Assembly (NCBI GenBank): GCA_004377365.1
Contig: SOHZ01000288.1
Coordinates: 1 to 49,384, forward strand
Length of the DNA: 49,384 bases
Direction: 5' to 3'
Origin: Anaerolineales bacterium
Lineage (GTDB): Bacteria > Chloroflexota > Anaerolineae > E26-bin7
Both the position numbers and the translations under genes were made by a program. Below are positions 1 through 41,757 of the stretch, one piece after another (position 1 is the stretch's first letter; each line of letters begins with the position of its first letter). The notes below the pieces were generated by a model, which did not search any database, had not been told where the DNA came from, and saw only the letters and a list, made by a program, of their open reading frames with translations.

Positions 1-950
1 GCCAGCAACAATGCCTGAGGGGCAAACAGGGACAAAAGGGCAAAAGGCCTCAGCAATTCATACAAGTAAACCAGGTTTTGTCTAGTCAAAAGGATCTCTG
101 AAGTAAACCTCGGTCTGGTGAGCAGGGAGATGGCTATTTGCAGGGGGTTATCCCCCAGATCTTCGTAGTAATTCAAGAAGGGAGAAGTCTCTTCGGGATG
201 AAAATGGGGGATGACGACGTAAACTGCCACATAGAACCAAATTGCCCCTGCCAGGATGGTGAGCAGGCCCTCTTTTCTGTTCCTTTGGATCAAGAAGATA
301 TACAGCCCCATCATCGCCACGATCAGCGAGATCTCCTCCTTGCAACTTGCGGCCAACAAAACGAAGAGGGCAAAGAGGCGGTAATTCCGCTTGTGCATGA
401 AATAGAAGGCACAGAGGAACAAGGTTGGGGTCAGAGAGACAGCATGGAAGTCGAACATATTGGCTGCCTCGAGGGGCGGGAATAGCAGGTAGGCGGCGGC
501 GAAGACAATGGCGGCCAAGTCGTTTCCTAGCTTTTCCCTTGCCAGCCAAAAGACCGGTAGAGCCCCCAGGGCAATGACCACGGCCTGGAAAACGAGGAGC
601 GTCCTGGGGTCACTGTAAAGCAAATACAACAGCGAGAGGGGGATCAGGATGGGCTCCACGTGCATGCCCAAGCGAACCCGGCCCATCTCAGGCTGGCCCG
701 TGAAGTGTAAGAGGCGGCCGTGAAGGGTGCTCCACAGGGCCTGGTCGTAGTTGCCCATGTCCAAGACATAGGGCTTGAAGCTCTCGTAGCGGGAGATAGA
801 CAAGGTGGCGAAGGTAAGAATGTAGAGGATGATGAGGAACCAAACTAGCGCCAAGGGTAGCTTCTGTAAGTGAGGACGCCGCAGCTTGCTGCGGATAGGA
901 CAGAGCGGCTTCTCTCGTTCGGATTGTGATGTACTGGGTCTGGTTCTCAT
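1..950 (-). CDS. DUF2079-family GT-C membrane glycosyltransferase (3' end outside window)
   Basis: Not in ORF track because it runs off the window. Manual translation from ATG 950 gives LDMGNYDQALWST...LGMHVEPILIPLS...FDFHAVSL...CKEE, a clear paralog of 3920..6361. The ATG overlaps the upstream stop (ATGA). Confidence 0.85.
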   Translation of the reverse strand, partial: MRTRPSTSQSEREKPLCPIRSKLRRPHLQKLPLALVWFLIILYILTFATLSISRYESFKPYVLDMGNYDQALWSTLHGRLLHFTGQPEMGRVRLGMHVEPILIPLSLLYLLYSDPRTLLVFQAVVIALGALPVFWLAREKLGNDLAAIVFAAAYLLFPPLEAANMFDFHAVSLTPTLFLCAFYFMHKRNYRLFALFVLLAASCKEEISLIVAMMGLYIFLIQRNRKEGLLTILAGAIWFYVAVYVVIPHFHPEETSPFLNYYEDLGDNPLQIAISLLTRPRFTSEILLTRQNLVYLYELLRPFALLSLFAPQALLL

Positions 951-3787
951 TTCACCATCACCTTTCCCAACAGTACCCTGTCCCCTTGCACCTGCCCCCC
1001 CTCATCGAGCACGGGAAGCCGCTGTCCTGTTTCACTTTCGTACATTCCCACCTCGATGACGCACTCCCCCGGCGGCGCATCGGACTGGACGACGATGTCG
1101 TATTCGTCCACGATGACCTCGCCCTCAACCCAGCTTGTCGTAGGGCAGGTGCCATCGCAGGGGATGTTGTCCTTCTGTCCCCAGATGCGATTCTCCCCAT
1201 CCAGCAAGTGGGTGAAGACGGTGTAGCTAGTAGCCATCTGCCTTTGGGTCTGCCAGTAGAGGGTCAGGTGCAGCGTCCCGCCAGGTTCAACCCCCGTTGC
1301 CGTCAGATCGTAGCCGAGAAAGAGCACGTCATCGCCTAAGCTTGCTGGCATAGGGTGCTGTATCCCCTCCGGGATGGCGAACCGTCGCTCGCTAGCCAAG
1401 ATATGCAGCGTGGCAAGTAGGAGGTTGTCCTCGACGAGGGCTTGCCCCGTGTCACTATCAACTAAGTTAATGGACAGCCCATACTCGCCTGTCGGAGCAG
1501 CAGCATTGAGGGGCAAATCATATTGGCCCCGGATTGTCTCTCCTTGCCCCCACTGACTTGTCGGGTAGGTGTCGTTGGCTGGCTGGATCACTCTCTGAGC
1601 TCCAATATATCCGTCTTCGTTCTGAATCTGGAGGAGGAGATTGTAATCACGTCCCATCTCCCTCAACGCTTGCCAGAAAAACGTGAGATGAACGGTATCA
1701 CCGGGCTTGACCCTGTCCCCAACCAGGTTATAGCCCAGCAGTCTTACCCCATCTCCCAGATCTCTCAAGAGCGGGTGCTGAATGGGGAGGTCATCAAGGA
1801 GGGGCTTGCTTGGCTTTGTCACGGTCACCTCCCCCAGGGTGTATGCGGTGCCCGCAGGAGCCTGATTCTCATCCAGGAAATTGAGCCTCTCACCTGTATC
1901 CTTCTGATAAAGGCCGATTCTCACTCTATAACGGCCCGGGGGGGTGCCAATGAGCATGGGCAAGTACAGTCCCTGTTCATAAATCTCACCGGCCGGCCAT
2001 TGGGACGTTTTGCGGTAAGAACAGTCCTCTAACTCCATGTCCAACTGTCCCCACAGATGGTTATCATTGTCCACCAGGTGTAGGAATACGGTGTAGTCTG
2101 TCTCCATCTCTTGTTGAGACTGCCAGTACAGGATGACCCCAAAGTCCTCTCCAGCCTCAACCATCTCCTTCTCGAAGCCATATCCTCTTAGGGTCAACTG
2201 ATAACCAAAGTTCGAGTTCAGCGGCGTAACGGGGTTGAGGTCCTCGGCGTGATACACCTGAAATAGCTGACCACTCCGGTTAAAGCCGCGCACAAGGTGG
2301 AAATGGGTATGAACATAGTGACGAAAATCCCCGTAATCTCGTAATCTAAGCAGTTGATGGGGTGGGGGGATCCCCCCCCAGGTATGGAGGAGTATCATCC
2401 TCACTCCTTTATCCTCGATCTCCTTTGTGAGCTTTTGCCCTGTGATTTGTCCGCTGGCAGTCGCCCCGCTAGATATGTAAGCTCCTAAATGTGTGGTTCT
2501 GCGCTGTGCACAGAAACTCAAACCCGGATAATCGGAGAGGATATAATCATCTGGCTGGGTATGAGCCTGGATGTAATCTGCCAGTCGCCACGTGTCTTTC
2601 TCTGGCAATCTCGATTCGGCTAAGGCACGGTCCTTCTGCAAGAAGGGGATGGCTATCACTGCAGTCAGCAGAAGGCTCAGAGCCCACTTGATTCTGTTGT
2701 CCCTGAGGGGAGATAGGCCCAGGTGCGTTTCGATGCTTGGGGATGCCAGGATAAGCAAAAGCGATTCCAGGGAGGAAGTGAAGAGAATGCAAAGCACAGG
2801 CACTAAATATGCCAGGTGGCGATGCTCCAAAGATCTGGAGAGGAAAAGGAAGATCAGGCCAGTTGGCAACTGCCAGACGAAGATAGTCGTCAGTCTATCT
2901 CTTCGCACAAAACTTCTTACTATGGCCGGAACCGTAAGCAGGAGGAACAAGGGATACTTCAGAAAATAGGTCCAATAGAACTGGAGCCCTTTTCTAAAAA
3001 CCTGCCAGCGAGTGAGCTCTGCCCCTTGCATGAGGTGATGCCCTAACACGGCCTCATAAAGGTGGGGCGTTAGAAGATAGAAGACGGCGAATACCATACC
3101 CACAAGGGCAGCATAGGCAACTGTCAGCGCCAGGGCATTTTTCAACGTTTGTTTCCATTTAGCTCTTGTTCTAAGCCCTTCATGCGACATAAATAACAGG
3201 CAGCCGACCAAGGGCAGAAACCCGAAGAGCTTGCACAAGGTCGCCAAAGCGAACAGTGCTCCCGAAGCCGAAAATCCCCACCACCGATTTTTGAGATTTG
3301 CCAGGACAAAGACATAAATACCCATTACAGCGAAGAGCAACATATACGCTTCGGGAAGAAAGAGCCGGCCTAGCCAATAGATGTGTGGGTGCATCACGAA
3401 GACTAACATGCTCAACAACCCCACCCTGTGATTAAAGACTCTTTTAGCCGTGAGATAAATGAAGAACGAGGTCAGGAACACCGCTAAAGAGGTAAAAGCT
3501 CGCATTACAAACACCGACGGTCCAAAGATCTTACACAACGTAGCTCCCAGGTATAGAAACAGCGGCAACTGAGGGCTAAGAAAATCCCTGTAAGGGAACT
3601 CTCCCTCACTGATGCGCCAGATAGCATATAGATAAGAACCCTCGTCGTCATGCATTAACCACCCGTCTATATCCTCAAGGTAGAAGGAAAGGCCGAGGAT
3701 GATGATAATGATAGGAATGATGTTATATCTGATCAGCAAATCCCTGAAGTCAACACTTCTTTTAGACATTTTGATGCTCGGATCCAC
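947..3787 (-). CDS. ArnT/PMT-like (GT39/GT83) GT-C glycosyltransferase with 3 C-terminal extracellular beta-domains
   Basis: 946 aa; first-loop acidic motif HDDEGSY, many TM helices, then three LxGYxL...LYWQ...YTVFxHL...PPGxY repeats. Confidence 0.8.
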   Translation of the reverse strand: MDPSIKMSKRSVDFRDLLIRYNIIPIIIIILGLSFYLEDIDGWLMHDDEGSYLYAIWRISEGEFPYRDFLSPQLPLFLYLGATLCKIFGPSVFVMRAFTSLAVFLTSFFIYLTAKRVFNHRVGLLSMLVFVMHPHIYWLGRLFLPEAYMLLFAVMGIYVFVLANLKNRWWGFSASGALFALATLCKLFGFLPLVGCLLFMSHEGLRTRAKWKQTLKNALALTVAYAALVGMVFAVFYLLTPHLYEAVLGHHLMQGAELTRWQVFRKGLQFYWTYFLKYPLFLLLTVPAIVRSFVRRDRLTTIFVWQLPTGLIFLFLSRSLEHRHLAYLVPVLCILFTSSLESLLLILASPSIETHLGLSPLRDNRIKWALSLLLTAVIAIPFLQKDRALAESRLPEKDTWRLADYIQAHTQPDDYILSDYPGLSFCAQRRTTHLGAYISSGATASGQITGQKLTKEIEDKGVRMILLHTWGGIPPPHQLLRLRDYGDFRHYVHTHFHLVRGFNRSGQLFQVYHAEDLNPVTPLNSNFGYQLTLRGYGFEKEMVEAGEDFGVILYWQSQQEMETDYTVFLHLVDNDNHLWGQLDMELEDCSYRKTSQWPAGEIYEQGLYLPMLIGTPPGRYRVRIGLYQKDTGERLNFLDENQAPAGTAYTLGEVTVTKPSKPLLDDLPIQHPLLRDLGDGVRLLGYNLVGDRVKPGDTVHLTFFWQALREMGRDYNLLLQIQNEDGYIGAQRVIQPANDTYPTSQWGQGETIRGQYDLPLNAAAPTGEYGLSINLVDSDTGQALVEDNLLLATLHILASERRFAIPEGIQHPMPASLGDDVLFLGYDLTATGVEPGGTLHLTLYWQTQRQMATSYTVFTHLLDGENRIWGQKDNIPCDGTCPTTSWVEGEVIVDEYDIVVQSDAPPGECVIEVGMYESETGQRLPVLDEGGQVQGDRVLLGKVMVK

Positions 3788-3919
3788 CTTATTTGGACCG
3801 ACTCGTCCAGCAGAATACGGTTATCTACGACTGCAACACCTATTTTACCACACTTACCTTGTTCAATAAAACTCTGTCTTCCTGCGCTACGCCTCCATTG
3901 CCCCCACTTTGCCTGGCAT
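3788..3919 (-). pseudogene. Two stacked 3'-end remnants of GT-C genes
   Basis: Reads GGVAQEDRVLLNKVSVVK* (cf. GDVAQEDRILLNEAVVVK* ending 6385..9246), then VVDNRILLDESVQIR. Confidence 0.7.
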
Positions 3920-6361
3920 CTACTCCTTCCTCCTGGGTATCTGAGCCTTACACAGTACTATCCTGTTCCCTTCCACGTCTCCACCTTCATCCTGCACTTT
4001 CAGCCTCTCTCCCGTGTAAACATTATACATACCGATTTCGATGACATACTCGCCGGGGGGAGCGCCAGCCCGTATCGATACTTTGTATTCGTCGGCTATG
4101 ACCTCCCCCTCCAGCCAACTGGTCGTTGGGAGGAGACCACCTCCGGGCACGCTGTCCCATTGTCCTCCCATTATCCCATCCTTGTTCAGCAAGTGGACAA
4201 AGACTGTGTAGGACTCGTCTATCCTGGTCATAGCCTGCCAGTACAGGGTCAGGTGCAAAGTCTCACCACGTTTGTAGGGTGGGGGAGAGAGGTCGTATCC
4301 CAGAAACCGCACCTGATCTCCCAGGATGGCCTCCATAGGGTGCTCGATCTCTGGCACGGTGAAGCGCCGCTCTTGCAGCATGGGCTTGGCTCCTGCCCAG
4401 GTTTTGCGGAAGGTTATCAGTTGCAACAGGGTACCATCAGCAGGCAGCGGCGTGAGCAATTCGGATTCGATGACCTTTGGCCTCAACCGGCGGCCCACGT
4501 CCCAGGTGTCGTTTCCATCCAGGATTCCCAGGGCAACGCTGTATTGCTCCCTGTCACCTGTCCACCAAGATAGGGTATCCGCTCTGATCTTCACCACTTC
4601 GCCTGGCTGCCAACGGTCTGTGGGATACCAGATTGTTGCCGCTTGCAGTTCGACGGTGCTGCCCACAACCTGACCAGCCTCGTCAACCAGGTACAGGGCG
4701 ATGAAGTAGTTGCGGTCCAACGGGTGCCAGGTTCGGAAGTAAAGGTTGTAATGCGGTTCTTCATCGCGCTTGTGGATGACATCGAATCCCAGGAACTCGA
4801 TGTGAGAGTCAAAGTCGGCCAGCAGAGGGTACTGGATCTCGGGGTCTTTGACCCTGACGAAGGTATAAAATGAATCGGGTGGGCGAGAATCAGAAGCGCC
4901 GCGCTGCAACAGGAGATACCCGTCTCGGGCAGCGACGACACCGAAAGGTCCGTTTTCCAGCAACTGTTCCTTAACCCAGGTATTTATATCATCCTTGTTG
5001 CCCAACGAGGCTGCGTCGAGGAAGATGTACTCAGCTTGGTCAATATGGGGAAAGATATAGAGCTTCTCCCGATGGCTGACGTGAGGGTTCAAGTTGAGTT
5101 GGGCTGAGACGCTGGCCGTTGGTGGGATCCGGTCAATCAACTCCTGAGCCAGGCGGTGATGTGCAGTGGCTACAGGCCATCTGAATCGTACGGATAAAGG
5201 CGAGAACCCCCGATAGCGATGATAGCCCAGGCTGCAAACCAAAACCAAACAAGAGAGGAGATAGGACAACGATCTGCTCCCCCCTGGCATTCGTCTCCCC
5301 AGGTGTCTAACCAGGAACCCTGCTCCCCAAATAGCAGCCAGGACGGCGAAAGGGACGATGGGCCCTGCGTAGTGAAACATCTCTGGGCGGTGCATCTGCA
5401 TGTTGCCGCTCAGCAGGTTGATGGCCAGTGAGGGGAGGGCAATAAGCAGAATAGGCGGGTAAAATAGGGGCAGAAAGGCCAGGGGAAGAAGCAACCTGAA
5501 TAGATAGTCCAAGTTACCCTTGTTGAAGATGAGCCACCAGGCTCGTTGCCCGATCATGGTCAAGGCTATCTCGAAGGGATTGTCGCCCCAATCTTCGTAG
5601 TAGGCGAGGTACTGGGATTTGCCCTGGGGGTTGGCCCAGGGGATGACGATGTAGACTGCCACGTAGAACCAGATCGCCGCCACGACGATCATGGCCGCCC
5701 CAAGCTTCTTCCTCTTGCGCATCAGGAGAGTATACAAGCCCATCATCCCTATCAGGAGCGACATCTCTTCTTTGCAGCTCATGGCCAATACAGAGAAGAC
5801 GATGAACCACGGATCCTTCTCCTTCTCCAGGAAGTAAAAGGCCCAGAGCAAAAAGGTGGGAGCCAGGGATACGGCATGAAAGTCGTACAAGTTGGCTGCC
5901 TCGAGGGCTGGAAAGAGCAAATACGCCGCTGCGAAAACGATCCCCCCGAACTCGCTTCGTAACTTCTCCCGCGCCAACAGGTAGACCGGCCAGGCTCCTA
6001 GAGCAACGACCACCGTCTGGAGGACGAGCAGCGTCTTGGGGCTGCTGTAGATCAAGTAAAACAGCGAAACTGGCAGGAGGATGGGTTCCACGTGCTGGGC
6101 CAACCGGATGGTCAGGCCCTTCACGTTGGTGAAACGGAGGAGACGACTATGGCTAGTGTTCCAGACGGCCTGATCGTAGTTGCCTAGATCGTAGGCCAAG
6201 GTCTCAAAGGCTTCGTGCCGGGCCGCCGTTAGAGCGGAGAAGACAGCGATGTAGAGGACGATGAGGAGCCCCATTATGCCCAGAGCTAACCAACTTTGGG
6301 AATGGGGTTGCGTGATTTGTGATGTGTGATTCGTGATTCGTGAAGTTGACTCCTGACCCAC
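3920..6361 (-). CDS. DUF2079-family GT-C glycosyltransferase with 2 C-terminal beta-domains
   Basis: 813 aa; DLGNYDQAVWN, HVEPILLP, DFHAVSLA, CKEE motifs. Confidence 0.85.
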   Translation of the reverse strand: MGQESTSRITNHTSQITQPHSQSWLALGIMGLLIVLYIAVFSALTAARHEAFETLAYDLGNYDQAVWNTSHSRLLRFTNVKGLTIRLAQHVEPILLPVSLFYLIYSSPKTLLVLQTVVVALGAWPVYLLAREKLRSEFGGIVFAAAYLLFPALEAANLYDFHAVSLAPTFLLWAFYFLEKEKDPWFIVFSVLAMSCKEEMSLLIGMMGLYTLLMRKRKKLGAAMIVVAAIWFYVAVYIVIPWANPQGKSQYLAYYEDWGDNPFEIALTMIGQRAWWLIFNKGNLDYLFRLLLPLAFLPLFYPPILLIALPSLAINLLSGNMQMHRPEMFHYAGPIVPFAVLAAIWGAGFLVRHLGRRMPGGSRSLSYLLSCLVLVCSLGYHRYRGFSPLSVRFRWPVATAHHRLAQELIDRIPPTASVSAQLNLNPHVSHREKLYIFPHIDQAEYIFLDAASLGNKDDINTWVKEQLLENGPFGVVAARDGYLLLQRGASDSRPPDSFYTFVRVKDPEIQYPLLADFDSHIEFLGFDVIHKRDEEPHYNLYFRTWHPLDRNYFIALYLVDEAGQVVGSTVELQAATIWYPTDRWQPGEVVKIRADTLSWWTGDREQYSVALGILDGNDTWDVGRRLRPKVIESELLTPLPADGTLLQLITFRKTWAGAKPMLQERRFTVPEIEHPMEAILGDQVRFLGYDLSPPPYKRGETLHLTLYWQAMTRIDESYTVFVHLLNKDGIMGGQWDSVPGGGLLPTTSWLEGEVIADEYKVSIRAGAPPGEYVIEIGMYNVYTGERLKVQDEGGDVEGNRIVLCKAQIPRRKE

Positions 6362-6384: not shown

Positions 6385-9246
6385 CTATTTTACCACAACT
6401 GCTTCGTTCAATAAAATCCTATCCTCCTGCGCCACGTCTCCAGGGACAGGCTCTTCGGCTTTCCCTTCGACTTCGCTCAGGGCGGGGCTCAGGACAGGCA
6501 AACGCTGGCCAGTCTGCGCGTCGTACAGGCCGACCTCGATAAGGTATTCGCCCGGCGGCGCATCGGTCTTGACGGTGAACTCGTACTCGTCGGCGATAAC
6601 CTCTCCCTCGACCCACCTCGTGGTCGGCAGGGTGCCGTTACCAGGTACGCTGTCGCGCTGTCCCCAGATCCGATTCTCTTTGTCCAACAGATGCACAAAG
6701 ACAGTGTAAGACACTTCCATCTCATCCAAGGCCCGCCAATATAAGGTCAGGTGCATCGCTTCACCGGCTCGCACCTCATCAGGGGTCAGGTCGTAACCCA
6801 AGAACTCTACCTGATCGCCCAGGTTGGCCGAGAGCTGGTGCTGGATCTGCAGGACCTGGAAAACCCTGCTCCGGCCCTCGATGGTCAGCGAGGGGAGAGC
6901 GATCTCACAGACCAGGCTTTCCGTAGCCGTGTCTACCAGGCCCACTGTCAACTGATACTGGCCGGCTGGCGTCTCTGCAGAGAGAGGCAGTTCATAACGA
7001 TCTCGCAGGACCTCGCCCTCTTGCCAAAGAGTGGTGGGATAAGTGCTGGCCACAGGCCGCTCCTTCACCTGACCCCATACCTGGCCAGCCTGATCCCTCA
7101 CACGGATGAGGACGAAATAGTCTTCCTGCACGTCGGCCAGAGCCTGCCAGTACAAGTCCAGGGATACGGCAGCCCCAGGTGTTACGGTTTCACTGGCCAA
7201 GTCATACCCCAGCAGCCTGACCTCTCCCCAGCCCGCTGTAAGCTCGTGTTGGATGCCCAGGGAGGCAACAGACGGCGGTGACAGGGGGCGACTGACCTCT
7301 ATCTTACCTAGCTGAACGGCCGTCCCCTGGGGCGTGCCGTTGGCGTCAAGGACGTCGAGCCTGGCCAGGCTTTCAGGCTCGTAGACGGCTACTTCTACGG
7401 TGTATTGGCCCGGCGGGGTGCCGTCGGGCACCAGCGGGTCATAGACATTGATCACCACCTCATCCAACCACCAACTAGGAGTATACAGATGCCGGTCGTT
7501 GATCAATTGCCGGTCGTCCTGTCCGATGAGATGACCACGATTATCTTTCAGGAACAGGGCAACTTTGTAGTTTCGGTCCACCTCTTGCTGCAATTGCCAC
7601 TGCAGAACGGCCCACATTTTTTTCCCTGCTGGTACGACCCTTGCCTCCACTTCTGCTTCGTTGCTGGTAGCTCCTGCTCCTCGCCCACCATAAGCATAGC
7701 CCACCAGCGAAATCTGGTCGGCAAAGTCCACGTCAATGGGGTTGACTTCCGAGGTCAAAGAAAAAGTCCCGTGGGGTGGCAGTTGATACCAGAGCACCTC
7801 GTAGCCACGAAAGCTCGCCTGGCCCAGGGGCTGGCCGTACTTGTCTAGCAGGAACAGGACCGCACCACGGGGGTCGGTATCGGATTTGTGCCAGCGGATC
7901 CAAAAGACCCGCTCCCGCCCCTGGCACAGCGTGGTCAGTCGCTGGGCCACCGTGTGGATGTCAACGAAAAGGTAGTGGGCTGGCGCCAGACCGTGGTAGT
8001 AATAATCGAAAGGATAGGGCACGTCAATCAGGATGACATCGTTCTTCCCGGCCTGGCTCTCGATGAAATGGGCCAGACCGCGCGTGTCGTCGCCGAAACC
8101 GGCCGGATCGAAATAATCGGCCTGGATAGCGGGAACAAAAGCGGCGAGGAGAAAGATGGCAGACAGCAGCCCAACCACTGGCACCCGCTTCCAGATCTGC
8201 CCGACGGCATAGGCCAGTAGCAGATAGTAGGGTGGGGTAGCCAACATGATGTAGCGGGGGTGGAAGAAGGGCCTGTCGCGCAAAACATAGAAGTACAGGA
8301 GGATAGGCAACGCCAGCCACAGGCACAGCCATATCATTTGAGATTTGAGAGAGGCCAATCCGATGACCAGGCCCAGGACCAGGATGAGGGCTATGCCAGC
8401 CAGGAAGGGAGTGGCTTGGATTAGTTCAGCGGCTGGTCCCAGGCTGAAGCCTTGCCAGACTTCCAGCAGAAAAGAAGGCAGGTCCGGCACCCCCATGGTG
8501 GGGTTCTCATAAGCCACGTACTGTCGCAAAGTGATGCGCATCTGAGGAACGTATAGCAGGGCTATGCCTAGCTGGCTGAGCACCCAACCTCGCAGAATTT
8601 TCAGCCACTTTCCCTGCCGCCAGACTGTGACAAGAACCATCAACCCCAGGAAGGCGTTTTCGGCAATCAGGATAAAGCCAGCCGAGTAGTGGGTGTAGAT
8701 GCTCAGAGCCGACGTCAGCACGTAGCCAATCCACAAGAGCCAGCCACCTTTTCGCCAGGCCCGGTAGAGGAAGTAAGCCGAGGCCGTGGTCAGAAAGATA
8801 GCCATGGTGTACATCCTGGTCTCCTGGGCCTCAGAAACGTAGAAGGGAGCAAAGGCAGCCACAGTAGCCGCCAGCAAGCTGAAGGGGTGATTTGGGATTT
8901 GAGGTTTGAGATTCGTCCCCATTGCCGCACTGAAACGATAGAACAGGGGGATGGTCAGCAGGGAGAAAAAGATGGACAGGAACCTCACGGCGAACTCGCT
9001 GCGCCCGGCTCCCAGCATCCAGAGGTGTAGGGTATAGAAGTACAGGGGAGGGTGGATGTCCATCTCCTTGGCCGTGGCGATGACAGCCAGGCTGCGGCCG
9101 GCCACGTCAATGTTGCGTCCCTCGTCCCACCAGATGTCCTGGGAATCGAGGCGATAGAGACGCAAAGCAAAGGCGCACAACAGTACGAGAAAGATTATCA
9201 CTAGATTCCGGTGGCGTGACATAGGAAATTTACCCATGCTGATCAA
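6385..9246 (-). CDS. GT39/ArnT-like GT-C glycosyltransferase with 3 C-terminal beta-domains
   Basis: 953 aa; LRLYRL..IWWDEG, DIHPPLYF, SEAQETRMY, YTHY motifs; true start probably a few codons downstream. Confidence 0.85.
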   Translation of the reverse strand: MISMGKFPMSRHRNLVIIFLVLLCAFALRLYRLDSQDIWWDEGRNIDVAGRSLAVIATAKEMDIHPPLYFYTLHLWMLGAGRSEFAVRFLSIFFSLLTIPLFYRFSAAMGTNLKPQIPNHPFSLLAATVAAFAPFYVSEAQETRMYTMAIFLTTASAYFLYRAWRKGGWLLWIGYVLTSALSIYTHYSAGFILIAENAFLGLMVLVTVWRQGKWLKILRGWVLSQLGIALLYVPQMRITLRQYVAYENPTMGVPDLPSFLLEVWQGFSLGPAAELIQATPFLAGIALILVLGLVIGLASLKSQMIWLCLWLALPILLYFYVLRDRPFFHPRYIMLATPPYYLLLAYAVGQIWKRVPVVGLLSAIFLLAAFVPAIQADYFDPAGFGDDTRGLAHFIESQAGKNDVILIDVPYPFDYYYHGLAPAHYLFVDIHTVAQRLTTLCQGRERVFWIRWHKSDTDPRGAVLFLLDKYGQPLGQASFRGYEVLWYQLPPHGTFSLTSEVNPIDVDFADQISLVGYAYGGRGAGATSNEAEVEARVVPAGKKMWAVLQWQLQQEVDRNYKVALFLKDNRGHLIGQDDRQLINDRHLYTPSWWLDEVVINVYDPLVPDGTPPGQYTVEVAVYEPESLARLDVLDANGTPQGTAVQLGKIEVSRPLSPPSVASLGIQHELTAGWGEVRLLGYDLASETVTPGAAVSLDLYWQALADVQEDYFVLIRVRDQAGQVWGQVKERPVASTYPTTLWQEGEVLRDRYELPLSAETPAGQYQLTVGLVDTATESLVCEIALPSLTIEGRSRVFQVLQIQHQLSANLGDQVEFLGYDLTPDEVRAGEAMHLTLYWRALDEMEVSYTVFVHLLDKENRIWGQRDSVPGNGTLPTTRWVEGEVIADEYEFTVKTDAPPGEYLIEVGLYDAQTGQRLPVLSPALSEVEGKAEEPVPGDVAQEDRILLNEAVVVK
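6451..6498. repeat. Nested REP-like element (24 bp inside 24 bp), in frame in CDS
   Basis: CTCTTCGGCTTT[CCCTTCGACTTCGCTCAGGGCGGG]GCTCAGGACAGG; encodes PVLSPALSEVEGKAEE. Confidence 0.8.
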
Positions 9247-9269
9247 CTGCTAGAGACCTGAGCAGGAGT

Positions 9270-9298
9270 TTGACACGAATCGCAATTTGGCTTATACT
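9270..9298 (+). promoter_or_regulatory. sigma70-type promoter of the Phd/DUF5678-protease pair
   Basis: TTGACA-17 nt-TATACT, followed by GAGGTG RBS before GTG 9318. Confidence 0.8.
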
Positions 9299-33772: not shown

Positions 33773-33789
33773 ATCCCTTCCTTTCGATG

Positions 33790-34663: not shown

Positions 34664-36061
34664 TTATCCGCTTTCCCATTCCTCCCCAATTTCAGGGTAC
34701 TTGGAGAACTTTTTGCGGAAGATGGCCATGATCTCGTCAACGCGCTCTTGAGTCTTGGCTTCGAAGCGCAAGACCAGCACAGGGAGATTAGAGGAAGCAC
34801 GGACCAGTCCCCACCCATCGCCAAAATTGACCCTGGCTCCGTTAATATCGTTGACATCATATCCGTCTGCTTTAAACTCTTGGGTCAACTTGTCAACCAC
34901 ATCATATTTGACTTCATCTGCACAATCGGCCTGCAAAGCTGGAGTAGATACGTAGTACGGTGTGTTAGCAATCACTTCAGACATGGTGCCTGTTTGTTGT
35001 GAAAGGTATTCTGTCAGTTTCAGAGCGGCAAAGACGGAATCATCAAACCCATAGTAGTCAGGCTGGCTTACGAATATGTGGCCGCTCATCTCCCCTCCCA
35101 GCACCGCTTGCTCGTCCCGCACTTTTTGCTTGATGTAGGAGTGTCCTGTTTTCCACATAATGGGGATGCCACCGTGGGCCTCAATGTCTTCTGGCAGAGC
35201 CTGAGAACACTTTACGTCAAATACAATCTTCGATCCAGGATGCTTTTGCAGAGCTTGCCGCGAGAGCAGGATGAGGAAACGGTCGGGCCAGACAACCTGA
35301 CCCTGCTCATCAGTAATTCCCAGTCGGTCACCATCGCCGTCAATCGCCAGGCCGATGTCGGCTTCTGTTTCGACGACCTTCTGCCCTGTGTCTTCCATCA
35401 TTTCCACTAATGAGGGATTGGGGAAGTAAACGGGAAAGTCCCAATCCAGATTGCAGTACAGTTCGACCACCTCGCACCCTGCTTTACGCAAGATAGCTGG
35501 GACAAACGCGCCAGCGGTTCCATTTCCTGTGTTGACGACAACTTTCATAGGGCGTGCTATCTCGACGCGCTTTAACAGGTCCGCTGTATAGTGTTCTGTG
35601 AAATCATCGGCCTGAACCGTGCCCTTTCCAGACCCAAAATCCTCGCTGACGGTTAGCTCGTACAGTTCTTCCATTTCCTCTGGCCCAAACGTATAAGAAT
35701 ATCCAAGGGCCAGTTTCAACCCACTCCATCCACTGGGATTGTGGGAAGCCGTGAGCATGAGCCCGCCCTTGGTCTCGTAATGATACTGAGCCGAATACAT
35801 CAGCGGGGTCAAAATCATACCCAGGCTGATGGCGTTGACGCCCGTAGATACGAGCCCCTCAATCGCTGCTTGTGTGAGTCTCTCCGAAGATTTCCTGTAA
35901 TCGTGGCCAACTATTGCTGTCTTGATCTCCCGTTGCCGAAGCATCGTCCCGTATGCTTTAGCAAGGATTCTGATGGTATCCTCGTTCAACTCCTTGTCGT
36001 TCACCCTCCCGCGAAGGTCATATTCGCGGAACATAGTACGCTCCAGGTTTGCCATTGACAA
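34664..36061 (-). CDS. Phosphomannomutase/phosphoglucomutase (AlgC-like)
   Basis: FREYDLRG, TASHNP, DGDGDR, GEMSGH, VRASSN..LRFE. Confidence 0.93.
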   Translation of the reverse strand: MSMANLERTMFREYDLRGRVNDKELNEDTIRILAKAYGTMLRQREIKTAIVGHDYRKSSERLTQAAIEGLVSTGVNAISLGMILTPLMYSAQYHYETKGGLMLTASHNPSGWSGLKLALGYSYTFGPEEMEELYELTVSEDFGSGKGTVQADDFTEHYTADLLKRVEIARPMKVVVNTGNGTAGAFVPAILRKAGCEVVELYCNLDWDFPVYFPNPSLVEMMEDTGQKVVETEADIGLAIDGDGDRLGITDEQGQVVWPDRFLILLSRQALQKHPGSKIVFDVKCSQALPEDIEAHGGIPIMWKTGHSYIKQKVRDEQAVLGGEMSGHIFVSQPDYYGFDDSVFAALKLTEYLSQQTGTMSEVIANTPYYVSTPALQADCADEVKYDVVDKLTQEFKADGYDVNDINGARVNFGDGWGLVRASSNLPVLVLRFEAKTQERVDEIMAIFRKKFSKYPEIGEEWESG

Positions 36062-36076: not shown

Positions 36077-36637
36077 TCAGATTCCCTTGCGTTGCTTTAG
36101 GATGATCTCCACCGCCTGAGCTAGGTCCTCCACAATGAAATCGGGCCGTGTCTTCCAGTTCTGACGCTCCTGTAGCGCTTTGCCGCCCCGGCCTGTTTTG
36201 ACCAGGAAGGTCGTGCAGCCCACGGCCGAACCAGCTTCAATGTCCGATATGGCATCGCCCACCATATAGCATCGAGTCAGGTCGAGGTCCCAGTCTGCCG
36301 CAGCCTTGAGCAACATTCCCGGCTTGGGCTTGCGACACTGACATCCGTCCTCAACCCGATGGGGACAGTGATATACCGCCGATATCTTCCTGCCAGCGAC
36401 GCTGGTTTGTGTAACCAGGCGGCGGTTGATCTCCTGCACCATCGCATCCGATACCAGCCCTTTGCCTATACAGGCTTGATTGCAAATCACGATGACAGGC
36501 CTGTTCTCTCTTAGCAATCGTTGGATGGCCTCGCGGGAGCCGGAGAGAAACTCGAACTCTTGCCAGTGCCTGACATAGTCGCCATCTATATTGCGGTTGA
36601 TTACACCGTCGCGATCCAAAAACACCGCGGTCTTCAT
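36077..36637 (-). CDS. gmhB: D-glycero-D-manno-heptose 1,7-bisphosphate phosphatase
   Basis: FLDRDGVIN, NQACIG, CPH...C.CRKPKPGM, MVGD..SD. Confidence 0.85.
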   Translation of the reverse strand: MKTAVFLDRDGVINRNIDGDYVRHWQEFEFLSGSREAIQRLLRENRPVIVICNQACIGKGLVSDAMVQEINRRLVTQTSVAGRKISAVYHCPHRVEDGCQCRKPKPGMLLKAAADWDLDLTRCYMVGDAISDIEAGSAVGCTTFLVKTGRGGKALQERQNWKTRPDFIVEDLAQAVEIILKQRKGI

Positions 36638-36889: not shown

Positions 36890-37297
36890 TCATTGCGCTC
36901 CCAGGTATTGTTCGACGAGTTCCAGAACCTCGGTCGCCAAAGCGATAGCTCCTTCGGCGTCCCGGTCATCATATACTTCGGCTGGCACGCCGCCAGGCAG
37001 CCCATTAGGGTATCGAGTGGGGATGTAGAAACGATCCAACTTGCCCACCTGCGAGGTCAGAGAGGCAAAAACTTCCTGGTGCTCTCCACAGCGTTCGCAC
37101 AACTCTATGACCGAGTGGCCAGTTACGAATCGCTCTCCCTGTCGAAAAAGAAAGGCTTTAAGGGCTTTCTCGGCACTCTGCTGGGCACTGAAGCAGGCGG
37201 TGGCATAGAATTGGCCCTCAGCGTTGTACTTGGCCACTTCAAGGTCGTATTGGGCTTGTTTAAGCCAACGCGCGGCTTCAGCTACTGGATCCTTCAT
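36890..37297 (-). CDS. HEPN domain protein
   Basis: RWLKQA.YDL, ACFSAQQSAEKALKA, GHSVIEL, YIPTRYP. Confidence 0.9.
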   Translation of the reverse strand: MKDPVAEAARWLKQAQYDLEVAKYNAEGQFYATACFSAQQSAEKALKAFLFRQGERFVTGHSVIELCERCGEHQEVFASLTSQVGKLDRFYIPTRYPNGLPGGVPAEVYDDRDAEGAIALATEVLELVEQYLGAQ

Positions 37298-37601
37298 AGA
37301 CGACGACGCCTTCCTTCAATACTATTTCAACGAAAGAGTTGCCTCGCTCTTGCATCTCCGTGAACTCTTGGGGAGTGTAGACCAACACGTCCAAGGCGAA
37401 ACGGGGTTGAACCAGTTCGTAGATAGTTTTCAACCGATCCAAGAAGCGCTCGTTTGTCTCTTTTATGATTACAATATCCAAATCGCTGTACTGGTCAGCA
37501 TTCCCTCTGGCTTGAGATCCAAAAAGAATGATTCGCTTAGGCTCATATTCCCTCAGAGCTGAGACGACTTGAGCGATTCGATCCTGCTGGGAAATCAACA
37601 T
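37278..37601 (-). CDS. Minimal nucleotidyltransferase (MNT)
   Basis: IILFGSQARG...SDLDIVII...DVLVYTPQEF. Confidence 0.9.
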   Translation of the reverse strand: MLISQQDRIAQVVSALREYEPKRIILFGSQARGNADQYSDLDIVIIKETNERFLDRLKTIYELVQPRFALDVLVYTPQEFTEMQERGNSFVEIVLKEGVVVYEGSSS

Positions 37602-37602: not shown

Positions 37603-38583
37603 CTATACCTTAGCCTTTACACTGTCCTTCTGCAAGGCTTTCACATCAGCGTCCACCATCATGTGAATCAGTTCCTCGAAGGAGACCCTGGGCTCCCAGC
37701 CCAGTACCTTTCTGGCCTTGCTGGCATCGCCGATCAACTGATCTACCTCGGCCGGGCGGTAGAATTTGGGATCGCAGACCACATACTTTCGATAGTCGAG
37801 GCCCAGGTACCCGAAAGCCACCTCGCATAGCTCTCGCACCGAGTGCGTCTCGCCGGTGGCTATAACATAGTCATCGGGTTCGTCCTGCTGGAGCATGAGC
37901 CACATGGCCTCGACGTAATCGCAGGCGTAGCCCCAGTCCCGTTGGGCTTCCAGATTGCCCAGCGTCAGTTCATCGGCCAGGCCCAGCTTGATCTTGGCCG
38001 CGCTGTGGGTCACTTTGTGGGTAACGAACTCGAGGCCACGGCGAGGACTCTCGTGGTTGAACAGGATGCCCGAGCAGGCGAACAGGCCGTAGCTCTCCCG
38101 GTAGTTGACGGTCATCCAGTGGCCATAGACCTTGGCTGCGCCGTAAGGACTACGGGGGTGGAAAGGGGTGTTCTCGTTCTGGGGTACCTCTCGAACTTTA
38201 CCAAACATCTCCGAGGAGCTGGCCTGATAGAAGCGGATGTTGTGATCCACCAGCCGGATAGCATCCAGCACCCGGGTCACCCCTAGGGCGGTGAATTCCC
38301 CGGTCAAGACCGGCTGCTCAAAAGAAGTGGGCACGAAGGACTGGGCAGCCAGGTTGTAGACCTCATCAGGGTGGTGCTTCTGAAGGATGGCGATGAGGGA
38401 GACCTGATCCAGTAGATCACCCTGTACCAACTCGATATCATTTTGAATGTGGGTGATACGGTCAAAACCTACGGTGCTGGTGCGGCGCACCATACCCAGA
38501 ACCTTGTATCCCTTCCCTAGCAAGAACTCAGCCAGGTATGAACCGTCTTGACCGGTGACGCCAGTGATCAAAGCTTTTCTCAT
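37603..38583 (-). CDS. gmd: GDP-mannose 4,6-dehydratase
   Basis: [55 protein letters not shown]. Confidence 0.95.
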
Positions 38584-38602: not shown

Positions 38603-39562
38603 TTATTCCTTATCCCTTACGCTCTCTCGCCAATAGTCCAGCACGTTTTGTAAACTCTTCTCGAAGGGAATGGTCACCCGCCAACCTGTGCGAGCCCGCA
38701 ACTTGGAGCAGTCGCTGACCATAACCGGTACATCGGCCGGGCGCAGGCGGGCCGGGTCTTGCTCGACCTGGATGGACACGGAAGCCATTGACAGCAGACC
38801 GTCTAACAATTCGCCAATAGAGTGCGTCTGCTCTGAGCCCAGATTATAGACCTCCCCTGGCTCCCCTTCGGTAAGAGCTGCATGGTATCCCCGCACCACA
38901 TCGCGCACATCGCTGAAGTCACGCTGGGGTTCCAGGTTACCGACCTGGATGACGGGCTCTTTCAAACCCGCTTCGGCTTTGGCTATTTGCCTGGCAAAGT
39001 CGGGGGCCACGAAGCCCAACCTCTGGCGAGGGCCAATGTGGTTGAAGGGCCGCACCCGCACGGTGAACAACTTGTGGCTCAAGTGATATTGCAGTCCCAG
39101 CATATCCTGGGCCACTTTGCTCACCGCGTAGGGACTGGTGGGGCGTAAGGGATTCGTCTCTTTGATTGGCAATTCGTCAGGTTGCACCAGACCATACTCT
39201 TCACTGGAGCCGACCACCAGTATCTTGGCCGTCGAGCCCAGCCTGGCAACAGCCTCCAGGATATTGAGCTGGAGACGGATGTTATTGGCCAGGGTCGCCC
39301 AGGGGTCGCGTCGTGAGAGGGAGACAAGAGGCTGGGCAGCCAGGTGAAAGATATAATCCGGCTTCACTCGCTCTATGATTGAGGTCACTGTTTTCAGTTC
39401 TGAAAGCTCTGCTGGGTAGAGCTCCAGTCTGTCTTGCAAGTGCTCGATGTTGTCTTCAGGGCCGTAGACAGTACCAGCCACCTGCCAGTCGGTATGCTCA
39501 AGAAGATATTCGGCCAAGTGGCTGCCGACGAAACCGGAGATGCCCGTGATCAATGCCTGCAA
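38603..39562 (-). CDS. GDP-4-keto-6-deoxy-sugar reductase (Rmd-like extended SDR)
   Basis: ITGISGFVGSHL, GSSEEYG, SPYAVSK, RPFNHIGPRQ, RDFSDVRDVVRGY; adjacent to gmd. Confidence 0.75.
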   Translation of the reverse strand: MQALITGISGFVGSHLAEYLLEHTDWQVAGTVYGPEDNIEHLQDRLELYPAELSELKTVTSIIERVKPDYIFHLAAQPLVSLSRRDPWATLANNIRLQLNILEAVARLGSTAKILVVGSSEEYGLVQPDELPIKETNPLRPTSPYAVSKVAQDMLGLQYHLSHKLFTVRVRPFNHIGPRQRLGFVAPDFARQIAKAEAGLKEPVIQVGNLEPQRDFSDVRDVVRGYHAALTEGEPGEVYNLGSEQTHSIGELLDGLLSMASVSIQVEQDPARLRPADVPVMVSDCSKLRARTGWRVTIPFEKSLQNVLDYWRESVRDKE

Positions 39563-39630
39563 GTTGCCCCCTTGTCACTCGTTATTCATTGCTCATTACT
39601 TGCTGGCTAGGTGTTCAATCTTGGTGTCCT

Positions 39631-39659
39631 ATTATACCCCACTTTGTTTATCATCGCAA
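39631..39659 (-). promoter_or_regulatory. Promoter of the leftward glycosylation operon
   Basis: Minus strand TTGCGA-17-TATAAT. Confidence 0.7.
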
Positions 39660-39686
39660 GGATACCCTTGCCGTAACTTCACCCAC

Positions 39687-39715
39687 TTGCCAGCAGGCTA
39701 TCCCTGTGGTATCAT
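39687..39715 (+). promoter_or_regulatory. Divergent promoter of the DUF2723 gene
   Basis: TTGCCA-17-TATCAT with extended -10 TG. Confidence 0.65.
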
Positions 39716-39735
39716 TGGTGCAGGCACAAAATACA

Positions 39736-41757
39736 ATGACCAACTTCCAAATTCCAATCTCTATGAAAGAACTCTTACCCAGACGCAAAGTTTTTCTTCT
39801 AAGGGCTATCGTTTTCGTTGGCGCTCTGGCCCTCTATTGGCGTACCCTGGCCCCTTCAGTGGCCACCGTCTTTGACGACAGCCTGGAATTTCAACTCGTT
39901 TGCCCCACACTGGGCATAGCTCACCCCACCGGCTATCCTCTCTACACTCTCTTGGGCAAATTCTTCACTTTGATCCCCATCGGCGACGCTGCCTATCGGG
40001 TGAACTTGATGTCAGCTTTCTTCGCGGCCTTGACTGTGGTTTTCACTTACCTCCTCGTCCGTATGCTCACCGACAATTCTCTCTCAGCCTTTTTTGCCTC
40101 CTTAGCCGTTGCCGTCTCCCCCGTTTTCTGGTCACAGGCGGTCATTGCAGAGGTGTATTCTCTGAATGCTTTCTTTACCGCTCTGGTGGTCTATTTGCTT
40201 CTCAGATGGGAGGCGAACCGCAGACAGCGGCCAACAGTATGGCAGGTTTCCATACCTGCCATACCCAATAACTTATTGCTGGCTGCTTTCGTCTACGGCT
40301 TGAGCCTGACCCATCATCGCCTGATGCTGTTCCTGGCTCCGGCCATGGCCCTTTTCGCCTGGTTGACGGAACGCCCCCTCCGCTCGTGGCGGATTTGCAA
40401 TCCGCCACCCCTCAAGCTCGCCTCGAGGCTCTTCCTCCTTTTCCTGGCTCCCCTTATGCTCTACGCCTATATCCCTCTTCGGGGCCTGCACATTTCTTCC
40501 CTGGACGGCACTTACCAGAATACCTGGAGCGGCTTCCTTCACCATGTCACAGCCAGCGGGTACAACGTTTTTATCACTGGAAACCCCCTGGCCCAAAGTC
40601 GTCCCTTGAGCTTTTACTGGCAACTGTTGGTCAGCCAATTTGGGCTGGTGGGGATTGCCCTGGGCCTGGTGGGTTTCCTCGCCTCAATGAGGAGGCCCAG
40701 ACCCTCAACCCTGCTGGGGGTGGCCTTCGCCCTCAACGCCGCCTTCGTCCTGACCTATCGCGTGGCAGATATTGAGGTCTTTGCCATCCCGACCTTCTTG
40801 CTATACGCTATCTGGATTGGGATCGGAGTGGACTTTCTGGGGGGAATCCTTGCGAAGGTTTGGAAGCGGCTTTCAAGCCCCAAACGCCTTCGCTCACCGA
40901 GAATCGTCCTGTTGCCAGGGCTATTCGCAACCTTCGCAAGGGTGGCTGAACGTTTGCCCGACGCGAAGGCACTTGCCTCCTGCCGTTTGCTACTTGTCAC
41001 TCTGCTTCTCCTTCAACCACTAGCCCTCCTCAGAGACAATTATCCTGAGCTCGACCTGAGCCAACGTTGGGCGGTTCATGATTATGGTGTTGACATGCTG
41101 AGCCAACCCCTGGAAGACAATGCCGTCGTCATTGGCATCCTGGGCGAGATGACCCTCCTGAGATACTTTCAGCGAACGGAGGACCTGCGTCCCGAGGTCG
41201 TCACCATTGTCGCCGATCGCGATGAGGAACGCCTGGCTGCCATCGAGGGTGCCCTGGATGCCGACCATGCCGTCTACGTGACCCGTCTCATTCATGGCCT
41301 GCCCGAGCGCTACAGCTTATCGGCTTTGGGCCCCTTGATTAGAGTGAGGGATGCACCGGTCACTGCTATCCCTACCCCTCAGCATCCGCTGGCCATTGAC
41401 CTGACCGATTCGCTGCGCCTGCTCGGCTATGACGCGGCTGTTATGTCACCTCACCAGCAAACCACAGTGCGCCTCACCCTGCACTGGCAAGTTATTGCTA
41501 CAGTAGGTGCCGACTACAAGGTCTCGGCCCGTCTCTTGGACGTAGAGGGAAATCAGGTGGCTCAGATTGACGACGTGCCTGTCCACAGCACCTATCCTAC
41601 CAGCCGCTGGAAAGCGGGCGAAACCCTCGCCGATGTCTACGACCTGACTGTCCCGTCTGACACGCCATCCGGTCAGTACCGCCTGCTGGTTATCTTATAT
41701 GAGCCGGATACCCTGGCCGAAGTGGGACGGGCAGAATTGGGAACAGTCCAGTTGTAA
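39736..41757 (+). CDS. DUF2723 (TMEM260-like) GT-C glycosyltransferase with one C-terminal beta-domain
   Basis: TLAPSV..DDSLEFQ, GIAHPTGYPLY, RVNLMSA, WSQAVIAEVY, LTHH; start 39736 or 39763, downstream of the promoter. Confidence 0.85.
   Translation: MTNFQIPISMKELLPRRKVFLLRAIVFVGALALYWRTLAPSVATVFDDSLEFQLVCPTLGIAHPTGYPLYTLLGKFFTLIPIGDAAYRVNLMSAFFAALTVVFTYLLVRMLTDNSLSAFFASLAVAVSPVFWSQAVIAEVYSLNAFFTALVVYLLLRWEANRRQRPTVWQVSIPAIPNNLLLAAFVYGLSLTHHRLMLFLAPAMALFAWLTERPLRSWRICNPPPLKLASRLFLLFLAPLMLYAYIPLRGLHISSLDGTYQNTWSGFLHHVTASGYNVFITGNPLAQSRPLSFYWQLLVSQFGLVGIALGLVGFLASMRRPRPSTLLGVAFALNAAFVLTYRVADIEVFAIPTFLLYAIWIGIGVDFLGGILAKVWKRLSSPKRLRSPRIVLLPGLFATFARVAERLPDAKALASCRLLLVTLLLLQPLALLRDNYPELDLSQRWAVHDYGVDMLSQPLEDNAVVIGILGEMTLLRYFQRTEDLRPEVVTIVADRDEERLAAIEGALDADHAVYVTRLIHGLPERYSLSALGPLIRVRDAPVTAIPTPQHPLAIDLTDSLRLLGYDAAVMSPHQQTTVRLTLHWQVIATVGADYKVSARLLDVEGNQVAQIDDVPVHSTYPTSRWKAGETLADVYDLTVPSDTPSGQYRLLVILYEPDTLAEVGRAELGTVQL
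40237..40264. repeat. REP-type hairpin in frame (VWQVSIPAIP)
   Basis: GTATGGCAGGT-TTCCAT-ACCTGCCATAC, perfect 11-bp stem. Confidence 0.8.
40386..40408. repeat. REP-type hairpin in frame (WRICNPP)
   Basis: GTGGCGGATT-TGC-AATCCGCCAC, perfect 10-bp stem. Confidence 0.8.
40848..40941. repeat. 94-bp element with 13-bp terminal inverted repeats within the CDS
   Basis: CCTTGCGAAGGTT (40848-60) ... AACCTTCGCAAGG (40929-41). Confidence 0.65.

Follow-up and report, generated by a model that had tools for sequence, protein, structure and literature searches.

A repeated beta-sandwich module ends the GT-C glycosyltransferases of an Anaerolineales locus and is widespread across its class

The closest described relatives of the locus reported here are the three-component systems (GtrA/GtrB/Gtr and that of Citrobacter youngae), in which glycans are decorated outside the membrane after polymerization. 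As described in PMC11127046, ORF15, ORF14, and ORF12 of C. youngae together encode a polyprenyl-phosphate sugar synthase, a small flippase, and a membrane glycosyltransferase of the GT-C fold (GT-C), and this last protein, the GT136 enzyme ORF12, carries at its C terminus a beta-rich domain in the periplasm. The mycobacterial arabinosyltransferases EmbC and AftD (6w98) also consist of a GT-C membrane domain followed by one or more acceptor-binding extracytoplasmic beta-sandwiches, EmbC's C-terminal domain being an acceptor-binding carbohydrate-binding module (CBM) according to PMC3044687. Here, we analyze a 49,384-bp stretch of DNA, the whole of contig C285 from an Anaerolineales bacterium (the window), which carries nine GT-C genes; the eight complete products all end in one to three copies of one unnamed module. 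As in the three-component systems, a glycosyltransferase family 2 (GT2) enzyme, a flippase candidate, and GT-C enzymes with an extracytoplasmic C-terminal beta domain occur together. Since a GT-C enzyme with an acceptor-binding beta-sandwich has such precedents, the principle of this design is not new. The domain family, its scale, and a position-specific site within it are not described in the literature we searched: full-text searches returned no description of the module or of the GT-C expansion in Anaerolineae, and "not in print" applies within those searches. The window belongs to a metagenome-assembled genome (MAG) of 5.87 Mb in 676 contigs, 88.8% complete with 7.1% contamination, so that copy numbers given below are approximate.

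An earlier note on this DNA, made from its letters alone, had proposed nine GT-C enzymes from several families. The open reading frame (ORF) listing and Pfam searches bear out the number, with all nine membrane proteins above a gathering score (26.1 bits for PMT_2, PF13231; 28.2 for DUF2079; 30.1 for DUF2142; 24.2 for TMEM260-like). On the minus strand, from the left, lie the N-terminal 316 amino acids (aa) of a DUF2079 protein whose C terminus is cut by the contig end (3-950; PF09852, E = 2.1e-45, 156 bits, profile positions 9 to 266 of 459), a 946-aa PMT_2 protein with three modules (947-3787; PF13231, 63.7 bits), an 813-aa DUF2079 protein with two (3920-6361; PF09852, 1.4e-65, 223 bits), and a 953-aa PMT_2 protein with three (6385-9246; PF13231, 30.9 bits). 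Further along the same strand are four proteins with two modules each: one of 773 aa that is DUF2142-like (12216-14537; PF09913, 35.8 bits), an 872-aa PMT_2 protein (14524-17142; PF13231, 33.4 bits), a 775-aa protein with weak PMT_2/TMEM260-like similarity (17155-19482; PF13231, 29.4 bits; TMEM260-like, 25.3 bits), and an 814-aa protein just above the PMT_2 threshold (19479-21923; PF13231, 27.0 bits). The ninth gene, on the plus strand, encodes a 734-aa TMEM260-like protein with one module (39553-41757; PF11028, 1.9e-38, 132.5 bits). It matches the solved human TMEM260 structure (9rql) over residues 86 to 551 with an E value of 1.1e-21, the only hit when the module profile and four full-length proteins were searched against PDB sequences. 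More than one family is indeed present, but three of the genes (12216, 17155, and 19479) are paralogous over their full length (40% identity between 12216 and 17155, 52% between 19479 and 17155), and the nine genes therefore represent four groups by homology. We considered joining the cut gene at 3-950 to contig C621, which opens with a C-terminal DUF2079 half; the two tails resemble each other at the protein level, but no exact DNA overlap was found with this or any other contig end, and the join was rejected.

All nine translations carry an acidic motif shortly after the first transmembrane (TM) helix: HDDEG, WWDEG, YHDEA, PDEDSHY, PDELQHY, SDELWHY, YDLGNYDQ (twice), and FDDSLEF. In the 946-aa protein it reads HDDEGSY and follows TM1 directly, and PDEDSHY belongs to the 773-aa protein. 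These acidic residues are putatively catalytic, and D58 of the 813-aa DUF2079 protein is invariant across 72 homologs. DUF2079 and DUF2142 are families that we take to be members of the GT-C clan, and for DUF2079, the sole GT-C family of the array that was folded, this was also checked on an AlphaFold2 (AF2) model of the 813-aa protein (predicted local distance difference test [pLDDT], 90.2; predicted TM-score [pTM], 0.82). Foldseek matched this model, with moderate TM-scores, to STT3 (8pn9_A; E = 1.5e-6), PglB (6gxc), ArnT (5f15; target TM-score [TMt], 0.48), and ALG12 (9s6t; TMt, 0.51), and further to DPY19, AftD, and AftA. The predicted donor of these enzymes is a polyprenyl-phosphate-linked sugar.

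To locate the module, a hidden Markov model (HMM), built after a phmmer search from one seed copy taken from a single C terminus, was run over all 484 six-frame ORFs of the window. The eight complete GT-C proteins contain 3+2+3+2+2+2+2+1, or exactly 17, copies (domain E values of 1e-31 to 1e-52), where the earlier note had counted about 17. Its estimate of about 130 aa per copy is fair, with an HMM core of 115 positions and a folded unit of about 140 aa, and its motif (LTLYWQA, YTVFVHLLD, GQxD, PT..W..GE, PPGxY, VGLY, DRILL) agrees with the consensus of 81 aligned copies. From the membrane domain outward, and all on the minus strand, the copies lie at 1871-2215, 1433-1762, and 1004-1345 in the 946-aa protein (135.6, 130.6, and 156.7 bits); at 4508-4819 and 3992-4330 in the 813-aa protein (101.2 and 149.7 bits); at 7345-7653, 6910-7227, and 6490-6828 in the 953-aa protein (104.6, 136.9, and 168.4 bits); at 12741-13082 and 12279-12614 in the 773-aa protein (139.3 and 159.4 bits; the latter is the sequence that was folded); at 15034-15372 and 14590-14931 in the 872-aa protein (150.3 bits each); at 17677-18018 and 17221-17559 in the 775-aa protein (145.0 and 156.8 bits); and at 19980-20315 and 19542-19883 in the 814-aa protein (136.4 and 152.1 bits). 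The single copy of the 734-aa protein (41395-41718, plus strand; 122.3 bits) is divergent. Outside the GT-C genes, the window ORFs gave one further hit, an orphan half-copy at 42554-42730 on the plus strand (HMM positions 52 to 110, 60.4 bits) that duplicates, at a displaced site, the 3' end of the gene at 39553-41757. In its proteins, the module always occupies the very C terminus, with a tail of about 20 aa left after it.

The module is confidently predicted to be an immunoglobulin (Ig)-like beta-sandwich: an AF2 model based on an alignment of 81 near-complete copies from this genome has eight strands, with a pLDDT of 92.3 and a pTM of 0.85. No Pfam, NCBIfam, or PDB sequence model covers it. 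Single modules scored against Pfam-A gave scattered hits below the gathering score and none above it, NCBIfam returned 0 families, and the best E value of the module profile among PDB sequences was 0.04. The nearest ESM Atlas clusters are annotated "hypothetical protein" of Chloroflexota and have no Pfam family in common. One named candidate, DUF4832, was rejected (1 of 81 copies at 1.4e-3; Atlas score, 0.76). In the 953-aa protein, Wzt_C reaches 30.7 bits (cutoff, 30.4) only as the sum of stretches that are each below threshold alone.

The array is one sample of a genome-wide and class-wide family. The earlier note had treated the locus as a special system, and in this respect it was wrong, since the HMM recovers 105 copies from 60 ORFs of this genome and the module occurs in 40 of 41 sampled genomes of the class (2 to at least 99 matches each). 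By Pfam partner, the 60 ORFs comprise PMT_2 (31, one of them also with tetratricopeptide repeats [TPR]), DUF2079 (4), PTPS_related (3), YfhO (1), TMEM260-like (3), DUF2142 (1), AlgX-like SGNH (1), Pkinase plus PASTA (1), and no hit (15). A GT-C partner is thus present in 43 of the 45 classifiable ORFs; the 15 without a hit are eight polytopic membrane proteins (four cut by a contig end), five short ORFs (53 to 133 aa), and two cut N-terminally by a contig end. A profile search of 1.84 billion cluster representatives recovered 31,260 module proteins at E ≤ 1e-3 and 8,140 at E ≤ 1e-30. Among the best 120 word-index hits, a list biased to three-module proteins, 94 belong to GT-C families, 10 are SGNH/AlgX, 1 has only a weak Wzt_C hit, and 15 have nothing. 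Across the phylum, 74 of 201 sampled genomes, a tally that includes the unpublished genomes G065 and G197, contain the module, and each protein has one to four tandem copies (this genome and database hits).

Tandem arrays also recur: of 71 loci with the module in other MAGs, 39 have at least two module ORFs within 12 kb. Eight consecutive module ORFs lie between housekeeping genes in one complete genome; among the seven that were scanned, all five with a catalytic domain that Pfam classifies are PMT_2, and the other two give no Pfam hit. Two families of the class are without the module (none of 14 and none of 5 genomes, each with a completeness of 97% or more), and nearly all other families have tens of copies; this absence could reflect loss or a different envelope. 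Elsewhere in the source genome, a PMT_2 enzyme (L002:5910-9104, contig C676) has a TPR array at about residues 625 to 785 between its membrane domain and two modules, recalling the layout of TMTC-type proteins.

Two of the fusion proteins bear on which side of the membrane the module occupies. A PknB-like Ser/Thr kinase (L021:5535-7472, contig C214) runs from a cytoplasmic kinase domain through a single TM helix to two PASTA domains and, last, one module. In the AlgX-like SGNH protein P0241, an N-terminal signal-anchor helix is followed by the SGNH domain and three modules, an architecture found in a family of about 795 aa in these bacteria. Because these fusions place the module outside the membrane independently of GT-C topology, it faces outward rather than into the cytoplasm. 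The GT-C precedents agree: in STT3, PglB, ArnT, ALG12, DPY19, AftD, and AftA, the domain that follows the final helices is extracytoplasmic. TM segments counted crudely by hydropathy were too ambiguous to fix the topology, and the outward assignment comes from the fusion proteins together with these precedents.

We next compared copies by their position in the protein. In a tree of 88 copies, which is built on 115 columns and has strong support for only 6 of 85 inner branches, labeling by array position required 13 changes, compared with an average of 32.5 for shuffled labels (none of 200 shuffles was as low). Labeling by catalytic family required 17 against 20.8 and barely groups the copies, and two copies of one protein were never nearest neighbors. 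The terminal copies of PMT_2, DUF2079, and SGNH proteins form one clade with the shortest branches, so that closely related terminal copies do sit on unrelated catalytic domains, as the earlier note had supposed. Seven residues (T57, H61, Q72, D74, E91, D95, and R124) have a conservation of 0.82 to 1.0 in terminal copies and 0.15 to 0.65 in inner copies, whereas the structural core (Y27, W46, Y56, T84, W87, and L125) is kept in both alike. This pattern recurs in 105 terminal versus 129 inner copies from 67 loci of other Anaerolineae. The kinase module and the terminal module of the SGNH protein also keep the terminal-type polar set. That enzymes which all act on or sense cell-wall carbohydrate share a conserved site of polar and aromatic residues on their outermost domain suggests one common ligand, and the terminal module most likely binds a common envelope glycopolymer. 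We propose that the inner copies are mainly degenerate spacers.

Between 23082 and 10206, the minus strand holds an apparent operon of a glycosyltransferase family 4 (GT4) gene, four GT-C genes, a flippase-like gene, and a GT2 gene, with ORF ends that overlap or abut. Its first gene (21874-23082) encodes a cytoplasmic GT4 enzyme (PF13692 and PF00534). The GT2 gene (10206-11186; PF00535, 1.9e-36), which overlaps its neighbor, encodes a polyprenyl-phosphate glycosyltransferase of the GtrB/ArnC/PgfS type with two C-terminal hydrophobic helices; it reaches 240.8 bits with ArnC and 184.9 bits with PgfS and also resembles AglJ, all under the NCBIfam equivalog cutoffs. The adjacent membrane protein (11167-12219; PF03706, 5.1e-47; TIGR00374, 108.5 bits with a cutoff of 43.2) is MprF-type and a candidate flippase for the lipid-linked donor. 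It holds the position of a GtrA, ArnE/F, or MATE-type flippase, none of which is found in the operon.

With moderate confidence, we read this as an extracytoplasmic glycosylation operon of the three-component type whose GT-C enzymes share an envelope-polymer-binding tail. The GT2 enzyme would charge polyprenyl phosphate with a sugar on the membrane's inner face, and the MprF-type protein would move this donor outward. The four GT-C enzymes of the operon would then transfer the sugar outside the membrane, as may the further GT-C enzymes encoded upstream and downstream. Each GT-C ends, outside the membrane, in its cassette of one to three modules, and a site formed by H61, Q72, D74, W87, E91, D95, and R124 of the last module would hold the different catalytic domains on the same acceptor. 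All enzymes of the array may thus dock on one acceptor. The same polymer may also be acylated and sensed, because an AlgX-like SGNH enzyme and a PASTA kinase carry the same tail, and the kinase is a candidate sensor of the same envelope ligand.

This arrangement departs from described systems in several respects. Three-component systems use a GtrA or MATE flippase, whereas the candidate here is MprF-type (TIGR00374); one donor synthase here stands beside four to nine GT-C enzymes, and the C-terminal domain is a repeated unnamed module common to at least five GT-C families, on at least 43 such enzymes per genome. EmbC and AftD, the latter among the fold matches of the full-length DUF2079 model, have no sequence similarity to the module, and the CBMs of Emb enzymes do not form a cassette that is exchanged between unrelated catalytic families. 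Wzt_C (PF14524; 6o14, 8dl0, and 5hno) is a glycan-binding, similar beta-sandwich with weak Pfam hits to the module, but it is cytoplasmic and attached to the ATPase of an ABC transporter, whereas the module is placed outside the membrane. Human TMEM260, a protein O-mannosyltransferase, matches the catalytic part of the 39553-41757 protein, which ends in a module instead of the different C-terminal region of TMEM260. Where AlgX has its CBM, the AlgX-like SGNH family has three copies of the module, a different domain, and its members, unlike AlgX, are anchored in the membrane by an N-terminal helix.

Several observations weigh against the reading of a three-component operon with polymer-binding tails. 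The 67 loci of other Anaerolineae in which the polar pattern recurs were fetched with a terminal-module motif covering positions 56 to 62, which biases T57 to H61 and not Q72 to R124. Binding by the module is itself inferred. The fold matches are generic and none is clear of the rest, with many unrelated proteins at Z scores of 7 to 10. The second (Ig-like) domain of glycoside hydrolase family 2 (GH2) enzymes scores 10.8, RbmA scores 8.6, and the carbohydrate-binding domain of Wzt scores 9.4 (6o14; root mean square deviation, 2.9 over 107 residues), 8.8 (7k2t), and 8.0 (5hno), Z scores that tie with those of many unrelated beta-sandwiches, and has a Foldseek query TM-score (TMq) of 0.57; Spo0M and NPC2/ML domains are also among the neighbors, and best Z scores of 7 to 8 are, by the search tool's own note, common for models without a true match. 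The EmbC-type CBM (C-terminal subdomain II) is not among the fold and sequence matches listed for the module, a listing that does not exclude the family, and the sequence similarity to Wzt_C is marginal, with E ≤ 0.1 for only 3 of 81 modules searched singly and a best value of 3.4e-5. As for gene content, the window has one donor synthase for nine GT-C enzymes, the MprF-type family's role as a flippase of polyprenyl-phosphate sugars is unproven, a Pfam scan of the window revealed no Wzx/Wzy, Wzm/Wzt, or LCP proteins for backbone synthesis or export, and the eight-gene array of the complete genome has no GT2 or flippase gene nearby. Genome-wide, 15 GT2 paralogs of the donor synthase, about five of them full length with C-terminal helices, accompany at least 43 tailed GT-C enzymes.

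Other functions of the tail have to be weighed on the same data. The modules might be passive Ig-like spacers or stalks that lift or orient catalytic and periplasmic domains in a thick, multilayered envelope and have no specific ligand. Tandem Ig-like domains in one to four copies, the degenerate inner copies, and the presence of non-binding Ig-like domains of GH2 enzymes among the closest folds all suit such a role, as does the chloroflexotal envelope, which according to PMC13319060 stains Gram-negative, is regarded as monoderm, and is multilayered, with layers of unknown composition. A pure spacer, however, would not keep seven polar residues near-invariant in its last copy alone, across unrelated enzymes and genomes, nor does it fit that this copy has the shortest tree branches, and on balance we find a purely passive role unlikely. 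It is also conceivable that the tail's partner is a protein lattice (S-layer, sheath, or some other protein of the envelope) or further copies of the tail, so that many enzymes gather at one place and the tail works as an address or assembly tag rather than by recognizing carbohydrate. The same terminal copy on GT-C, SGNH, and kinase proteins would be expected of a tag, and the tandem module pair resembles the matrix scaffold RbmA and arrestin. We nevertheless regard protein binding as improbable: no partner protein was identified, all fusion partners are carbohydrate-active or cell-wall sensing, and a glycan-binding domain, that of Wzt, is among the fold neighbors.

The likeness to Wzt could also mean that the terminal module reads the cap or decoration state of a chain end, as the Wzt C-terminal domain does, and orders or gates the steps instead of being a mere tether. 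The carbohydrate-binding domain of Wzt ranks with the best fold matches, Wzt_C is the only named Pfam family hit repeatedly, and one reader common to many enzymes would make sense of the shared tail. Set against this, the 3 of 81 copies with a match do not place the module in Wzt_C by sequence, and the Pfam scan of the window shows no capping enzyme or ABC exporter; cap reading therefore seems very unlikely. Finally, some GT-C protein mannosyltransferases act on beta-sandwich domains, as TMEM260 does on IPT domains (PMC10214176), and the module could itself be the acceptor, with the GT-C enzymes glycosylating their own or each other's tails at, for example, the conserved Thr of "PT" or "YTVF". 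One enzyme of the array is a clear TMEM260 homolog, almost every copy has T84, and terminal copies conserve T57. Yet the tail is also found on DUF2079, PTPS_related/YfhO, and SGNH proteins, which are not known to glycosylate proteins, and on a kinase, and the TMEM260-like enzyme has the most divergent module copy of all. We also know of no precedent for tails that are their own enzymes' substrates, and we consider this the case with hardly any probability.

If the reading of an envelope-polymer-binding tail is correct, a wider and distinctly tentative picture, which we rate as doubtful, is one of combinatorial glycan decoration outside the membrane. One and the same terminal "reader" would direct at least 43 GT-C enzymes, the AlgX-like acyltransferase, and the PASTA kinase to a single envelope polymer, whose buildup, modification, and sensing would then all proceed through this common recognition domain. 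Gain and loss of array members between species of one genus would diversify the surface. Phage pressure is a possible driver of such diversification, given the defense and toxin-antitoxin islands embedded in the locus. In any case, one unnamed domain, with 31,260 protein clusters, marks most outward-acting glycosyltransferases of a whole class, which amounts to a large annotation gap. A purified terminal module could serve as a probe for the unknown envelope polymer, and the position-specific polar site and the AlgX-like and PASTA kinase fusions are concrete targets for mutation and binding work.

The earlier note had gone on to describe a complete pipeline of donor synthesis, flipping, and transfer in which a shared domain docks the enzymes on one acceptor. 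The shared tail was a reasonable reading, and the polyprenyl synthase, GT2, flippase-like, and NDP-sugar genes that it listed are all present. The pipeline itself was overstated: the GT2, the flippase-like protein, and four GT-C enzymes do form one tight operon, but the polyprenyl synthase is of the trans (quinone) type, and defense and toxin-antitoxin insertions, some of them absent from same-genus genomes, interrupt the locus as a unit. The synthase (32810-33964, minus strand; PF00348) has heptaprenyl and solanesyl diphosphate synthases as its best NCBIfam matches, below their cutoffs. This trans-type, long-chain family serves quinones and not the cis-polyprenyl carrier lipid. We rejected it as a carrier-lipid synthase on these family grounds; it probably makes quinone side chains and hence would not be part of the system. 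A cytoplasmic GT2 glycosyltransferase (31689-32636, minus strand; PF00535, 1.2e-24) has an uncertain place in it.

Four sugar-metabolism genes, all on the minus strand, lie between this region and the TMEM260-like gene. They encode a phosphomannomutase/phosphoglucomutase (PMM/PGM; 34664-36061) with four PGM_PMM domains (PgmG, 399 bits; cutoff, 600), a GmhB-like HAD-IIIA phosphatase (36077-36637; NF006506, 167.5 bits; cutoff, 178), the GDP-mannose 4,6-dehydratase Gmd (37603-38583; TIGR01472, 457.2 bits, passing the equivalog cutoff of 415), and, adjoining Gmd, a short-chain dehydrogenase/reductase (SDR) of the NAD-dependent sugar epimerase/reductase type (38603-39562; PF16363 and PF01370) that reaches no NCBIfam cutoff. 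The predicted product of this last enzyme is a GDP-6-deoxyhexose.

To place the array in its genus, we compared it with three same-genus genomes. These have orthologous DNA for most of the window, the GT-C genes being 76 to 89% and housekeeping genes 80 to 90% identical. Four stretches are without a long match: 1-3900, which holds the leftmost two GT-C genes, 9182-10211, 14524-17142, and 25287-30269. On contig C426 of genome G002, DNA matching 10255-14483 abuts DNA matching 17166-18162, and the GT-C gene at 14524-17142 is missing between them, a presence/absence polymorphism within the array. Since stretches with GT-C genes have no match in these relatives, the array gains and loses members within the genus.

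A RelB-YafQ toxin-antitoxin pair (41885-42148 and 42148-42417) is flanked by a 214-nt direct repeat (41543-41756 and 42552-42765, 91% identical) that duplicates the 3' end of the TMEM260-like GT-C gene. Insertion of the cassette apparently duplicated a long stretch of the target and gave rise to the orphan half-module ORF. Amid the sugar cluster, the island at 25287-30269 encodes a SIR2_2-like protein (25376-26380) and a 1,214-aa STAND protein (26584-30228) with DUF4062, NA-iREase1, NACHT, pentapeptide, and WD40 domains. Between a GT-C gene and the GT2 gene, on the opposite strand, one gene (9318-9740) joins a Phd/YefM-like antitoxin to DUF5678, and another (9740-10117) encodes a retropepsin-like aspartyl protease. 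This pair is an insertion here, since its flanks are 45 bp apart in genome G001.

Short elements have also entered coding sequence. A dispersed repeat of about 45 nt (6441-6499 and 11565-11593) has 39 blastn-short hits on 34 contigs of the genome and many more in same-genus genomes. The first of these copies adds an in-frame SEVEGKAEEP just after the terminal module of the 953-aa protein, and the second, also in frame, gives the flippase-like protein an added SKVEGKAEG. Another short element, at 18950-19000, accounts for an insert in the gene at 17155. Small conflict-type genes are scattered between the sugar genes as well: a HEPN/nucleotidyltransferase (MNT) pair (36890-37601), a MazF toxin (23214-23570), a DUF4258 protein (31014-31340), and a DUF2281 protein (25034-25360).

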